DNA of 18,702 bases from a virus (lineage: Duplodnaviria > Heunggongvirae > Uroviricota > Caudoviricetes), in IMG/VR virus record IMGVR_UViG_2690316273_000003, positions 1 to 18,702 of that record; one strand, 5' to 3'. Of this stretch, positions 9,699-12,354 are shown one piece after another. Position numbers and translations under genes: made by a program. Numbering within the stretch: the stretch's first letter is position 1; each line of letters begins with the position of its first letter. The notes under the pieces were generated by a model. That model was not told where the DNA came from and did no database searches. It saw only the letters and a list, made by a program, of their open reading frames with translations.

Positions 9699-9854
9699 GT
9701 GTCATCCAAGGTTAATTATGAGTCGCTGGCATCGGTCATGCCGCGTAATGAACAGGAAACAGATGCTGTAGTGGACCCTGTAATCGCTGAAATGAATGCT
9801 CGCCTGGAGGCTGAATTTGCAGCTGAGAATGAACATACCACCCAGGGCGACTAG
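9699..9854 (+). CDS. hypothetical small protein (about 51 aa)
   Basis: In-frame GTG at 9699 with RBS GGGAG 8 nt upstream, inside track ORF 9666-9854. No motif. Overlaps the start of the next gene. Confidence 0.25.
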   Translation: MSSKVNYESLASVMPRNEQETDAVVDPVIAEMNARLEAEFAAENEHTTQGD

Positions 9855-10458
9855 GACTGTTTTTTGTGTCGGTAGCGGTCCGTCACTCACTCGTGAGGAC
9901 TGTGCTGCTATAGAAAAAACTGGCTGTTCAATCATCGCGGTTAACAATTCCTGGCAGATGTTCGATGACATTTATGCTTTATACGCCGGTGATTTGTCAT
10001 GGTGGAAGCAATACGGATCCACCATACCGGGAGGGAGGTTCCGCAAAGTGACAGCCAACCTGGCGGCGGCGAAATCATTTTCGTTGGAGTACAGGCGATA
10101 TTGTGGACCGGCGGAAGGGGTAAATAGCGGCGCGCAGGCTATCAGTCTGGCTGCTGAATCAGGGGCTGAAGTAGTGGTATTAGTCGGCTATGACTGTTCT
10201 CTGCAAAACGGCCTTCATTGGCATGGCGCGCACCCTCAAGCACTACGGAATCCAACGCAGGTGTCTATTTCAAAATGGCAACAGCAGTTCCTGGATACCC
10301 GCAAAAAACACGCAGATTTACATATTTTGAATGCAAGTAGGAGCAGTGCAATTCAATGTTTCCCAAGAATAAATTTAGAGGCAGTGATCGCGTTATTATC
10401 GTCGGCAGTGGCCCAAGCGCCGCAAACTTTGTTGCGCCGCGCGGAGTGCCGATTATAG
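9829..10458 (+). CDS. MptE-like / GT42-like putative nucleotide-dependent transferase, paralog 1
   Basis: Core VFCVGSGPSLT...IIAVNN...VVLVGYDCS resembles the GNGPSL...CN...GxD pattern of Cst-II sialyltransferases and Maf/MptE-like (DUF115) proteins. Start chosen at the internal ATG 9829; the track ORF begins at 9796. The 3' end overlaps the start of paralog 2 by about 100 nt in another frame. Confidence 0.45.
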   Translation: MNIPPRATRTVFCVGSGPSLTREDCAAIEKTGCSIIAVNNSWQMFDDIYALYAGDLSWWKQYGSTIPGGRFRKVTANLAAAKSFSLEYRRYCGPAEGVNSGAQAISLAAESGAEVVVLVGYDCSLQNGLHWHGAHPQALRNPTQVSISKWQQQFLDTRKKHADLHILNASRSSAIQCFPRINLEAVIALLSSAVAQAPQTLLRRAECRL

Positions 10459-10982
10459 CGGTCAATGGGGCCATCGACTGGCTTAACCGCGCTTCTTATT
10501 TTTTCACACTTGATCCATCGCCAGACAATATGCGGCGCGTTGGTCGTGGCCGCCGTCGCCGTGGTGTTTGTTATTGCATGGCACTACCCGATGTTAAAGA
10601 ACGTGAAGTCAGAGATGGCGTTCTGTGCTTCCGTCGTGTGGCTGAACGCGGCACGGAGCCAAAAAATACGAATTCTCCCGAGTGGTGGGCGTGGCGCTGG
10701 TCCGCACATTTCGGCCTTTGTGAAGATGAGAATGAAATTGCCAGCGGCAATAGTGCATATGGTGCTCTGAACCTGGCTTTCCATATCGGATTCAAACATG
10801 TCGCCCTGGTGGGCGTTGACGCTACGCAAGAACCACGCGTTCACTCCGGCGGCACGCCAAAAAATCTAAGTCACCTGCCTTTGTTATTCCAGTCTGCGCG
10901 TGAACAGATTGACGTTGTTTCATGCGGGAAAATGGGAGGTATTCCGCAGATGACTCTTAAAGAATGGCTGAAGAATACATGA
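10356..10982 (+). CDS. MptE-like / GT42-like putative nucleotide-dependent transferase, paralog 2
   Basis: 208 aa. Core [14 protein letters not shown]...IIAVNG...VALVGVDAT aligns with paralog 1 along its whole length (GSGPS, IIAVN, VG-D, C-terminal ILNAS/VVSCG blocks). Confidence 0.5.
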
Positions 10983-11656
10983 TGGCACCAACAGTTTATC
11001 ACCGTATCGACGGTACCAAATACAGGAATATCTGGGTTGTTGGTGATCTGCATGGTTGCTACACCAGACTGATGTCCGAACTCCATCGTGTGGATTTTGA
11101 CCCGGCGCAGGATTTACTGATATCGCTCGGCGACCTTATCGATCGCGGTACTGAAAATGTCGAATGTCTGGAACTATTGCAGATGCCCTGGTTCAGGGCA
11201 GTGATGGGGAACCATGAGCGGTTGATGCTCGATGCGTTAAGTCCTGATGGCAACGTGAATAACTGGCTAATGAATGGCGGACAATGGTTCTTCATGCTGG
11301 ACACTGATCAGGAAATATTAGCCAGGGCGCTGGTGGAGCTGGTAAGACGTCTGCCCTATATCATTGAGTTGAACACCGGGCAAGAAACTATCGTTATAGC
11401 CCATGCCGACTATCCGGATAATGAATATCAATTCGGTAAGGAGGTGCCGCTTTTCAACGTTGTCTGGGCGCGCGAGCGTATCAGTGATTCGATGGATGAT
11501 ATTGGTGGCGAAATTTCTGGCGCAGATCGTTTTATCTTTGGTCACACTCCGGTGAAAAGCCCGAAGACATTCTGGAATCAGCATTATATCGACACTGGTG
11601 CCGTATTTTGCGGAAACCTGACATTGATGAAAGTGAAAGGTGATGGTGCAGCATGA
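10979..11656 (+). CDS. serine/threonine protein phosphatase, lambda PPase family (P1 Ppp-like)
   Basis: Metallophosphatase motifs GDLHG, GDLIDRG and GNHE. Near-collinear with lambda phosphatase as I recall it ([16 protein letters not shown]...[18 protein letters not shown]...[14 protein letters not shown]). Start ATG 10979 or 10982 overlaps the upstream TGA; the track lists 10964. Confidence 0.9.
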
Positions 11657-12354
11657 AGATTGCTTTAGTTCTTCGCTCTGGTGGTGACTATAACGCTTCC
11701 GATGTGCAGTGGCTGGTTAATCAACTGCCAAAAGGCTATGAAATTATTTGCCTGACAGACCTGAAGCGTTTACATGTACCTGGCGTCAAAGTTGTCCCAT
11801 TGATCAACCAGTGGCAAAAGTGCCGTGGCTGGTGGGCGAAAATCGAGTTGTTCCGACCGGATATAACCGATGATCTGTTCTATCTGGATTTGGACACAGT
11901 TATTGCCGGTGATATACGCCCAATCCTTGAGAATCCACCAACCAGCTTCACCATGCTTAGGGATTTTTACCATCCACAATATCGTGGTAGCGGTGCCCTG
12001 TGGATACCAAATAGTGTAAAAGCGCATATCTGGAGTGCATTCTGGCAAGATCCGGAAGGTTGGGTTGCTCGTTGTGTTACTACTGAATGCTGGGGTGATC
12101 AGGGGTTTTTGCGGAAGGTTATGGGTGATGATACACCAGCATTTCAGGATCTGTATCCGGGATGGTTTGTAAGTTACAAGGCCGATGTTGTGGAACCTGG
12201 TTCGAAATATGCAAGCGCGCGTTACTCCAGGGGGAATGGGGCATTACCAAAAGACTGCCGAATAATCTTTTTCCACGGCAAACCGCGACCTCGCGAAGTG
12301 TCAGAGGATTGGCTTTCCCTTATTAGCTCATTTTTTGAGCAAAAATCAGAATAA
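11653..12354 (+). CDS. GT-A fold glycosyltransferase-like protein with DxD motif (GT8-like)
   Basis: 233 aa. Its start overlaps the phosphatase stop (ATGA). Hydrophobic strand followed by DxD ([14 protein letters not shown]) as in nucleotide-sugar-dependent GT-A enzymes. The C-terminal FFHGKPRP is loosely reminiscent of the GT8 H-x-x-G-x-x-KPW motif. No TM segment. Confidence 0.5.

Follow-up and report, generated by a model that had tools for sequence, protein, structure and literature searches.

Genes pmgO, pmgP and pmgQ of a P1-like phage-plasmid: a candidate glycan-assembly cassette found in diverse phages of Gram-negative hosts

Mycobacteriophages (Che8 and others) encode glycosyltransferases that, in the passages of PMC11256854 and PMC12619734 that cite Freeman et al. 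2023, build glycans on capsid and tail-tube subunits; the genes involved lie near the right end of the genome. The hosts of these phages are actinobacteria of the Gram-positive type. Mycobacteriophage glycosylation of this type is said to be dispensable for growth and to include a methyltransferase. In Escherichia coli, phage enzymes described by Pyle et al. (bioRxiv 10.1101/2023.12.21.572611) add hexoses, heptose and 3-deoxy-D-manno-octulosonic acid (Kdo) to 5-hydroxymethylcytosine (5hmC), drawing on precursor sugars of the host lipopolysaccharide (LPS), and thus provide a precedent for the use of host Kdo by phage enzymes. We have taken the mycobacteriophage system as the working model for the pmgO, pmgP, ppp and pmgQ genes of phage P1, examined here in an 18.7 kb stretch of viral DNA (18,702 nucleotides of the IMG/VR record IMGVR_UViG_2690316273_000003, hereafter called the window). 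The products PmgO, PmgP and PmgQ are likely to make up a functionally coupled glycan-assembly cassette, of which the phosphatase Ppp, encoded between PmgP and PmgQ, would be independent.

Judged by its sequence, the window belongs to a phage-plasmid related to P1, with E. coli or Salmonella as host. Positions 9700-12500 are 98.5% identical to the pmgN-pmgO-pmgP-ppp-pmgQ region of P1, and the entire window is ~98% identical to P1 relatives of the SJ46 and JL22 types and to many E. coli plasmids. Gene names and sites were transferred from the P1 feature table (window coordinate = P1 coordinate, locus L001, + 699). The genes are already known and annotated in P1, so that their observation is a rediscovery; compared with the searchable literature, the new elements are the existence of a conserved and sometimes fused cassette, its link with the distant gene dbn, the passenger condition of ppp, and the usual location of the cassette in head modules. 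P1 is much used in bacterial genetics, and yet its annotation assigns the four genes no more than a 'putative morphogenetic function'. A literature search found no functional study of pmgO, pmgP, ppp, pmgQ or dbn.

PmgO (209-220 amino acids, aa) and PmgP (208 aa) carry the GSGPS, IIAVN and G-x-D motifs that an initial annotation of the window had described; the DxD motif of PmgQ, which it also described, and the open reading frames (ORFs) are likewise present within the coordinates that it gave (Table 1). The only Pfam family detected in either protein is PF01973, MptE-like (DUF115), with scores of 23.4 bits for PmgO and 20.9 bits for PmgP that lie below the gathering threshold of 34.6. The same family is matched at E<=0.01 by 44 of 59 PmgO homologues (best E, 3e-8), and precomputed PF01973 matches are present in several homologues of both proteins. 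A lead on DUF115 in the literature turned out to be false, as it concerned DUF1156. PmgO and PmgP belong to separate PHROG families with weak cross-matches, and pairwise BLASTP aligns only the N-terminal region from GSGPS to IIAVN (E 0.003). When profiles of 59 homologues each were compared, 165 columns were aligned (probability 97.6%, E 3e-12). The comparison indicates a genuine, though ancient, homology between PmgO and PmgP, which are ~22% identical. Hence, their description as tandem paralogs in the initial annotation was right about homology and overstated its recency, as each family is separately conserved across phages.

AlphaFold produced confident models, with predicted local distance difference test (pLDDT) values of 92.6 for PmgO and 95.2 for PmgP. 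Searches of PDB sequences with PmgO and PmgP, either as single sequences or as profiles, gave no match, and fold comparison alone succeeded. For both models the top structural match was the flagellin glycosyltransferase Maf of Magnetospirillum (5mu5), with 16-17% identity and 160 residues aligned of a 632-residue chain; CstI and GT29 sialyltransferases were also high-ranking. In a fold search of BFVD, the matches were uncharacterised phage proteins only. The Rossmann-like fold of Maf, MptE/HPPK and thiamin pyrophosphokinases is shared by the modelled PmgO and PmgP. Maf proteins are, however, ~600 aa long and have extra N- and C-terminal domains, and a further difference is that the phage cassette comes without genes for nonulosonic-acid biosynthesis. 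On the basis of the models, PmgO and PmgP are minimal Maf/sialyltransferase-fold enzymes, reduced to catalytic cores of ~200 aa.

Conservation among homologues is concentrated in a few segments. Invariant or nearly invariant residues are G17-P18-S19, S100-G101 and G120-Y-D122 in PmgO, and S18-G19-P20-S21, G131-N-S133 and G153-x-D155 in PmgP; invariant histidines are also found (H130 and H132 in PmgO, H173 in PmgP). In local alignments, the conserved N-S-G and G-x-D segments correspond to the segments of Campylobacter CstII (GT42) that bind cytidine monophosphate (CMP), T131-S132-G133 and G152-I-D154. Nucleotide-binding segments of this kind, comprising an N-terminal GxGPS loop, (T/N)SG, and G-x-D following the next strand, are shared with CstI and CstII in the absence of significant sequence similarity: alignment of the PmgO and PmgP profiles to the CstII sequence (1ro7) with hhalign was not significant (probability ~5%). 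The proposed resemblance to sialyltransferases, Maf and MptE therefore stands at the level of the fold, in both models, while the active sites, with the catalytic general-base histidine of CstII (His188), could not be mapped significantly by sequence. Membership of PmgO and PmgP in CAZy family GT42 was rejected at the sequence level, given the hhalign result, the empty PDB profile searches and the lack of any Pfam match besides MptE-like.

The fold admits another explanation: PmgO and PmgP might be ATP-dependent pyrophosphokinases, or other nucleotide-dependent enzymes that act on a small molecule or a sugar intermediate, with Ppp as a possible partner in P1. MptE-like is, after all, the sole Pfam family touched by the two proteins, a phosphatase gene is translationally coupled between pmgP and pmgQ, and a second phosphatase gene, pap, lies nearby. 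We consider this explanation improbable. The best structural match is a glycosyltransferase, with sialyltransferases also high in the ranking, and a local alignment matches the N(S/T)SG and G-x-D segments to those parts of CstII that bind CMP. Archaeal MptE (PF01973; PDB 8sd5) and thiamin pyrophosphokinases share the fold with PmgO and PmgP, which score below the family's gathering value; however, the gene partners differ, as PmgO and PmgP are accompanied by glycosyltransferases and sugar methyltransferases and not by folate or thiamin genes. Their tight linkage and fusion with sugar O-methyltransferases and a GT8-like enzyme, described below, points in the same direction, and Ppp is not conserved with PmgO and PmgP.

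PmgQ, in turn, appears by sequence to be a DxD enzyme related to GT8 glycosyltransferases, in agreement with the class proposed for it in the initial annotation. The relationship was detected with the PmgQ family profile, which matches the PDB entries 6mw5 (Gat1, E 1.3e-7) and 5gvv (GlyE, 1.9e-5) as well as glycogenin-1 and -2 (E 9e-5 to 2e-3); no Pfam family was found at E<=0.1, so PmgQ does not fall into PF01501 (Glyco_transf_8), and no NCBIfam model was found either. The DLD motif (D79-L80-D81) is invariant across 59 homologues, and so are W60 and K63. The N-terminal nucleotide-binding loop is likewise invariant, an N-terminal VLRSGG segment is conserved, and H208, G209, P211 and P213 of the HGKPRP segment are conserved in at least 90% of the homologues. 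The DxD region and the C-terminal segment (H-x-G..KP), both spanned by the profile, align with the corresponding segments of glycogenin and Gat1. With about 200-230 aa, PmgQ is shorter than its GT8 relatives (Gat1, GlyE and glycogenin; by family, the LPS-core enzymes WaaO, WaaR and LgtC) and belongs to a large family of its own without a curated model: 4,308 cluster representatives were found at E<=1e-10. The three best matches, Gat1, GlyE and glycogenin, all act on protein-linked glycans.

Strong evidence that these enzymes work together comes from other phages. A scan of IMG/VR led by the PmgQ alignment yielded P1-like loci only; when it was rerun with a distant PmgP sequence first, 25 diverse loci were obtained. 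In 23 of them, PmgP and PmgQ form a tandem within ~600 nucleotides (nt), directly abutting in about half of the cases, and PmgO lies upstream in ~20 of the 25. Examples are diverse. JK004, a P1-like Cronobacter phage, has PmgO-PmgP-PmgQ, and its pmgP and pmgQ are a mere 41 nt apart. In phiNP, a lambdoid phage of Citrobacter rodentium, the same trio lies between lysis and terminase genes. A metagenomic HK97-like siphophage shows the order head-completion protein, PmgO, S-adenosylmethionine (SAM) methyltransferase, PmgP, PmgQ and HK97 gp10-like protein. In the Xanthomonas jumbo phage XacN1, a PmgO-like and a PmgP-like protein are followed by a fusion protein in which a PmgQ domain is joined to a sugar O-methyltransferase of the TylF type. 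Hence, the trio is shared, as far as sequence comparison can tell, among P1-like, lambdoid, HK97-like and jumbo phages, while D3-like phages have a PmgO-like gene alone.

Fusions tell the same story. Among the best representatives of the PmgQ family, 8 of 18 long proteins contain both a PmgQ and an MptE-like domain, and other long homologues contain methyltransferase domains. SAM-dependent methyltransferase genes are found in or beside cassettes, and one sulfotransferase and one APS kinase were observed, a single case each. Conserved adjacency and fusion are strong evidence that the GT8-like and the Maf-like enzymes act in one pathway, and O-methyltransferases of the sugar type indicate that the product of the pathway is a glycan.

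The distribution of the cassette is also informative. All cultured phages that encode PmgP or PmgQ (27 and 31 records, respectively) infect Gram-negative hosts; the same is true of PmgO among the 40 listed of 73 matches, except for one Tetraselmis virus and one metagenomic record. Matches in GTDB are almost all in Pseudomonadota and other diderm phyla, with three exceptions that are metagenome-assembled bins of the candidate phyla radiation or of archaea. These exceptions (L152, L130 and L146) are PmgQ-like genes on short contigs that had been assigned to Woesearchaeota, Saccharibacteria and Paceibacterota; two of the genes have MptE-like neighbours, and one contig (L152) shows a phage-like head module; they may be mis-binned phage contigs, or the cassette may extend beyond diderm bacteria. 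'Solo' chromosomal PmgQ-like genes are found in heterogeneous neighbourhoods that suggest no clear function.

In the window, the genes under study form a single unit, as the initial annotation had proposed for positions 9829-12354. The unit includes in addition pmgN, and the P1 start of pmgO is 9796 instead of 9829. Every junction overlaps, in support of translational coupling: the overlap is 103 nt between pmgO and pmgP and 19 nt between pmgP and ppp (an ATGA instead, if ppp starts at 10979), and an ATGA is shared by ppp and pmgQ. A hairpin with a U-run found 3' of pmgQ suggests that the unit ends there. The overlap at 10356-10458 is a dual-coding region: the GSGPS motif of PmgP and the beginning of its IIAVN motif lie within the 3' end of pmgO, where the poorly conserved C-terminal helix of PmgO is encoded. 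Overlaps of this type are found elsewhere, with 70 nt in JK004 and 37 nt in EP_H11.

Ppp is, on sequence criteria, unambiguously a lambda-type phosphatase of the PPP family, as initially proposed: it matches the lambda enzyme (PDB 1g5b) with E 2.6e-94 over residues 11-229 (219 of 221 residues aligned), scores 60.2 bits with Pfam Metallophos (cut-off 21.5), and keeps all metal-binding motifs, namely GDLHG, GDLIDRG, GNHE and the distal histidines (aa 27-31, 56-62, 82-85, 147 and 194). Its relationship with the neighbouring genes is, however, loose. Among the 25 IMG/VR loci, the cassette includes ppp in a single P1 subclade only (L173, L181-L185). It is absent from the cassettes of JK004, phiNP, EP_H11, XacN1, the metagenomic phage L002 and 19 of the 25 IMG/VR loci, and from all non-P1 cassettes. 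Conversely, phage D6 has ppp without pmgP or pmgQ. The absence of Ppp from most cassettes and its occurrence alone in D6 argue that it is not part of the pathway. A plausible scenario is that Ppp is an independently mobile NinI-type phosphatase whose gene entered the cassette 3' of pmgP and 5' of pmgQ in one subclade of P1, and that it may be translated together with the cassette enzymes and have no part in their chemistry.

These observations bear on the pathway envisaged in the initial annotation, in which the four adjacent genes, phosphatase included, and Dbn participate in one multi-step modification. Overlapping and coupled junctions, shared promoters and a single terminator are what such a pathway would predict, and Ppp is intact in about 99% of the P1-like loci that carry ppp. 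We nevertheless find the five-enzyme version very unlikely, in view of the missing Ppp in the cassettes listed above and of the D6 arrangement. In addition, the closest relative of Ppp is lambda NinI (ORF221; 64% identity according to the P1 annotation), which has no transferase neighbours, and the two proteins differ in genomic setting alone: the nin region in one case, a wedge between transferase genes in the other. The nin region of lambda, where NinI is encoded, contains no transferases. The multi-step proposal thus survives for PmgO, PmgP and PmgQ, whose synteny and fusions support it, and fails for the phosphatase.

The fifth member of that scheme, Dbn, is best considered a candidate glycosyltransferase of the GT-B/GT4 type. 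Its match to Pfam PF00534 (Glycos_transf_1) has E 1.5e-5 and 25.0 bits, just under the cut-off of 26.4, and a search of PDB sequences gave no match; P1 records label it 'possible glycosyltransferase', and some plasmid records 'glycosyltransferase family 4 protein'. At its start, dbn overlaps the ban helicase stop codon (TAATG junction). The membership of this distant enzyme in the cassette system, which the initial annotation had suggested by grouping the helicase-coupled enzyme with the other transferases, gains support from the E. coli phage EP_H11: there, in a run of four overlapping genes that begins with that of PmgO, a homologue of Dbn (48% identity, phmmer E 2e-95) is encoded between PmgP and PmgQ.

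Coupling of dbn to a replication gene raises the possibility that the phage nucleic acid itself is hypermodified, by glycosylation of hydroxymethyl bases, as a protection against host nucleases. The enzymes of Pyle et al. add sugars of the relevant kinds to 5hmC in E. coli, and the unit may be expressed early, under the control of C1. However, those enzymes are of the GT-B and GT-A types and are encoded beside cytosine methyltransferase and TET-like genes, neighbours that the P1-type cassette lacks among the loci examined: no cassette had a gene for a hydroxymethylase or a TET-like enzyme beside it. The methyltransferases associated with it are of the TylF or small-molecule type and not DNA methyltransferases, the cassettes reside in head operons and not in replication modules, and anti-restriction is unchanged in P1 knock-outs. 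DNA glycosylation was thus rejected on the lack of hydroxymethylation genes and the sugar-type methyltransferases, and hypermodification of nucleic acid in general seems extremely unlikely. We know of no report that P1 DNA is glycosylated.

A different view emerges from the genomic location of the cassette. In HK97-like prophages, it typically occupies the interval from the capsid gene to the genes of head completion, often together with sugar O-methyltransferases. Among the ORFs that closely precede the cassette at 22 loci of GTDB species genomes are genes for portal proteins (9), major capsid proteins (9) and prohead proteases, and among those that closely follow it are genes for head completion (9), HK97 gp10-like proteins (5), head-tail connectors (5) and tail completion (4). 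Inspection of single genes showed the same layout for the metagenomic phages L002 and ERZ1426824 and for a prophage of Martelella. The Pseudomonas phages D3 and PAJU2 have a PmgO-like gene only, without a PmgQ homologue, within the head-to-tail region, and in D3 a methyltransferase gene lies near it. In P1, the unit is located 3' of the late promoter LPpmgL and immediately 5' of the head-completion gene pmgR, whose deletion leaves heads and tails unjoined (PMC9024508). The statement of the initial annotation that the substrate could not be told from sequence was, therefore, too pessimistic, as the genomic context narrows the choice toward a target linked to the virion or to morphogenesis.

Some neighbours of the cassette deserve mention (Table 1). 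Several prophages have, 3' of the major capsid gene and 5' of the cassette, a gene for a ~90-aa protein with a conserved N-terminal domain (phrog_2616, two cases), a linker rich in Ser, Ala, Pro and Gln (such as SSASPAAQASP) and a basic tail; the protein might be a glycan acceptor or a head-associated protein, and has no obvious counterpart in P1. Directly 3' of the XacN1 cassette, ORF372 and ORF371 encode hypothetical proteins of ~1,100 aa, one of them with a weak PKD-like match; a surface or structural role is conceivable for both, which makes them possible acceptors. Lastly, the PmgO homologue ORF010 of PAJU2 carries the depositors' label 'structural protein'; if the protein is truly virion-borne, the enzyme may travel with its substrate.

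An alternative to a virion target is that the cassette modifies a glycan of the host envelope (LPS core, O-antigen or another glycan with Kdo or hexose) at the cytoplasmic face of the inner membrane. The purpose would be to mask the receptor, thereby excluding superinfecting phages or sparing the progeny from loss on debris. GT8 is the family of the α-glucosyl- and α-galactosyltransferases of the LPS outer core in enterobacteria, Kdo is an LPS sugar, and the receptor of P1 is the LPS core. The restriction to diderm hosts would also be accounted for. Furthermore, chromosomal, non-phage PmgQ-like genes adjoin Wzy_C/O-antigen-ligase-like genes (3 cases) and FkbM methyltransferase genes, the phiNP cassette occupies a typical moron position in the gap between lysis and terminase genes, and a C1-controlled sigma-70 promoter lies 5' of pmgN in P1. 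Several facts are, however, hard to reconcile with an envelope target. A C1 operator implies repression in the lysogen, which makes classical lysogenic conversion unlikely, and the usual home of the cassette is a late head operon and not the vicinity of integrase or immunity genes; lysogenic conversion was rejected on these two grounds. LPS made anew during one lytic cycle is a small share of the cell surface, P1 knock-outs plate normally, and no membrane anchor was found in any of the proteins. We therefore view modification of the envelope as rather unlikely.

The reading that we favour, tentatively and with a confidence that falls somewhat short of probable, is that PmgO, PmgP and PmgQ form a late-expressed cassette that assembles a glycan on a virion protein, possibly with CMP-Kdo as a donor and with Ppp as a bystander. 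The three would be soluble cytoplasmic enzymes (transmembrane segments were found in none of the proteins) that jointly build a short glycan, with Dbn, encoded 6 kb away, as an accessory. PmgO and PmgP may be inverting transferases for a CMP-activated ulosonic acid, an idea suggested by their closest structural relatives, the CMP-binding-like segments and the nature of their glycosyltransferase partners. In E. coli, the donor might be host CMP-Kdo: to our knowledge, E. coli K-12 makes this CMP-sugar only and no CMP-sialic acid. P1 lacks sugar-activation genes, which together with the single CMP-sugar of K-12 makes CMP-Kdo the obvious candidate, and the exclusively diderm hosts would fit dependence on a diderm-specific donor of this kind. 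PmgQ would be a retaining GT8-like hexosyltransferase that adds an alpha-linked hexose from a uridine diphosphate (UDP) sugar, and in related cassettes sugar O-methyltransferases would tailor the product. The cassette could be transcribed with morphogenetic genes. Its position in late head operons, together with the precedent of capsid and tail-tube glycosylation in mycobacteriophages, points to a virion protein as the acceptor, and the resulting coat would be dispensable for plaque formation in the laboratory. A bolder version, a widespread and unrecognised virion-glycosylation system of Gram-negative phages, Dbn and O-methyltransferases being optional parts, in which two minimal Maf-like enzymes use CMP-Kdo to place Kdo-containing glycans on capsid or head-completion proteins, is in our opinion unlikely.

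Whatever its product, the cassette is maintained by selection. When about 80 P1-like loci were compared, intact ORFs were found in 95-99% of them, and the ratio of nonsynonymous to synonymous polymorphism (pN/pS), calculated relative to the window allele, is 0.05 for pmgO, 0.08 for pmgP, 0.16 for pmgQ and 0.21 for ppp; for comparison, the essential gene pmgR has 0.18. The P1-like cassette genes are thus under strong purifying selection, and the possibility that they are decaying cargo was rejected.

A number of facts weigh against glycosylation of a virion protein. None of the cassette enzymes has an observed glycan product, donor or acceptor. Single knock-outs of pmgO, pmgP, ppp, pmgQ and dbn in P1 (PMC9024508) and their silencing by CRISPR interference (CRISPRi; PMC10695390) cause no plaque defect and leave anti-restriction unchanged, and no glycosylation has been reported in the P1 virion proteome. 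Phages that bear the cassette have unrelated structural proteins, so that a single conserved protein acceptor is unlikely. Certain cassettes lie outside head modules, as in EP_H11 (among small genes of unknown function), phiNP and XacN1 (beside ribonucleotide reductase). The sigma-70 promoter under C1 control would permit early expression of the P1 unit, and chromosomal, non-phage PmgQ-like genes have O-antigen-ligase-like neighbours. In addition, none of PmgO, PmgP, Ppp, PmgQ and Dbn has been reported in the P1 virion proteome.

If the bolder version is correct, textbook phage P1 wears a sugar coat that nobody has looked for. If the cassette glycosylates virions, glycosylation of phage particles would extend from mycobacteriophages to phages of Gram-negative hosts, with a bearing on immune recognition of therapeutic phages, particle stability and host-range engineering. 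The work would also define a GT8-like family without a curated model (about 4,300 representatives) and a class of minimal Maf-like transferases, and both types of enzymes could serve glyco-engineering. In any event, recognition of a strongly selected transferase module (three genes plus dbn) turns 'hypothetical' genes into a testable system, and P1 knock-outs of every cassette gene exist (PMC9024508).

Table 1. Positions of genes, sites and motifs in the window and of three features in other loci (locus label given; numbering of that locus)
Feature	Position	Strand	Description	Source or basis
ban	1493-2863		replicative helicase gene	P1 annotation
dbn	2863-3861	+	GT-B/GT4-like candidate glycosyltransferase	
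tail/baseplate genes 5, 6, 24, 7, 25, 26		minus		P1 annotation
LPpmgL	8699-8717	+	late promoter upstream of pmgL-pmgM-pmgN-pmgO-pmgP-ppp-pmgQ	transferred from P1 annotation
pmgL	8806-9051			P1 annotation
pmgM	9054-9632		VRR-NUC nuclease-like	sub-threshold Pfam match, strong PHROG match
PpmgN	9600-9626	+	predicted sigma-70 promoter, weak	transferred from P1 annotation
Oppp	9639-9655	+	C1 repressor operator	transferred from P1 annotation
pmgN	9699-9854	+	51-aa ORF, first gene of the unit, overlaps pmgO start	
pmgO	9796-10458 (alternative start 9829)	+	predicted Maf/MptE/sialyltransferase-fold enzyme, phrog_4603	
PmgO motifs GSGPS, IIAVN, GYD	9871-9885, 9931-9945, 10186-10194	+		
pmgP	10356-10982	+	second predicted Maf/MptE/sialyltransferase-fold enzyme, phrog_2111	
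PmgP motifs GSGPS, IIAVN, GVD	10404-10418, 10452-10466, 10812-10820	+		
ppp	10964-11656 (alternative start 10979)	+	lambda NinI-type PPP-family metallophosphatase	
pmgQ	11653-12354	+	GT8-like (glycogenin/Gat1/GlyE-like) putative DxD glycosyltransferase, phrog_1962	
PmgQ motif DLD	11887-11895	+		
OpmgRa	12356-12372	+	C1 operator	transferred from P1
terminator-like hairpin	12381-12408	+	intrinsic-terminator-like hairpin with U-run	folding: dG -13.4 kcal/mol, z -5.5
pmgR			first of three genes 3' of pmgQ	P1 annotation
pmgS			second of three genes 3' of pmgQ	P1 annotation
pap	13991-14497		third of three genes 3' of pmgQ; HAD/PNKP-type phosphatase	P1 annotation; Pfam HAD_PNKP, E 3e-11
~90-aa protein gene	L092 7293-7553; L091 6697-6945; L099 7275-7541; L004 6654-6938; L156 6163-6444; L133 6152-6481		between major capsid gene and cassette	
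XacN1 ORF372 and ORF371	L158 6662-9925		hypothetical proteins 3' of cassette	
PAJU2 ORF010	L160 4974-5543		PmgO homologue	depositors' label 'structural protein'

Regarding the regulatory sites in Table 1, window positions 8650-8830 are 100% identical to the P1 stretch that bears LPpmgL/LP26 and a C1 operator. A simple scan for consensus promoters and terminators on the + strand missed both PpmgN and the terminator hairpin.

The small first gene of the unit, pmgN, matched no Pfam or NCBIfam model and had no detectable homologues among the families searched; with a pN/pS of 0.45, its constraint is the weakest in the unit. Reports on pmgN are in conflict, as it appears essential by CRISPRi (efficiency of plating, 1.4e-2) and non-essential by knock-out (PMC10695390). 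The four genes 3' of pmgN are non-essential by both procedures (PMC10695390).

Two further enzymes, the products of pmgM and pap, are encoded on either side of the cassette and are non-essential in P1; neither was found linked to the cassette elsewhere. Farther downstream, the match to P1 stops at position 15124, and the remainder (~15100-18700) resembles instead the P1 relatives of the SJ46 and JL22 types. This region contains ead/Ea22-like and DUF551-type genes, which are also common in Shiga toxin (Stx) phages.

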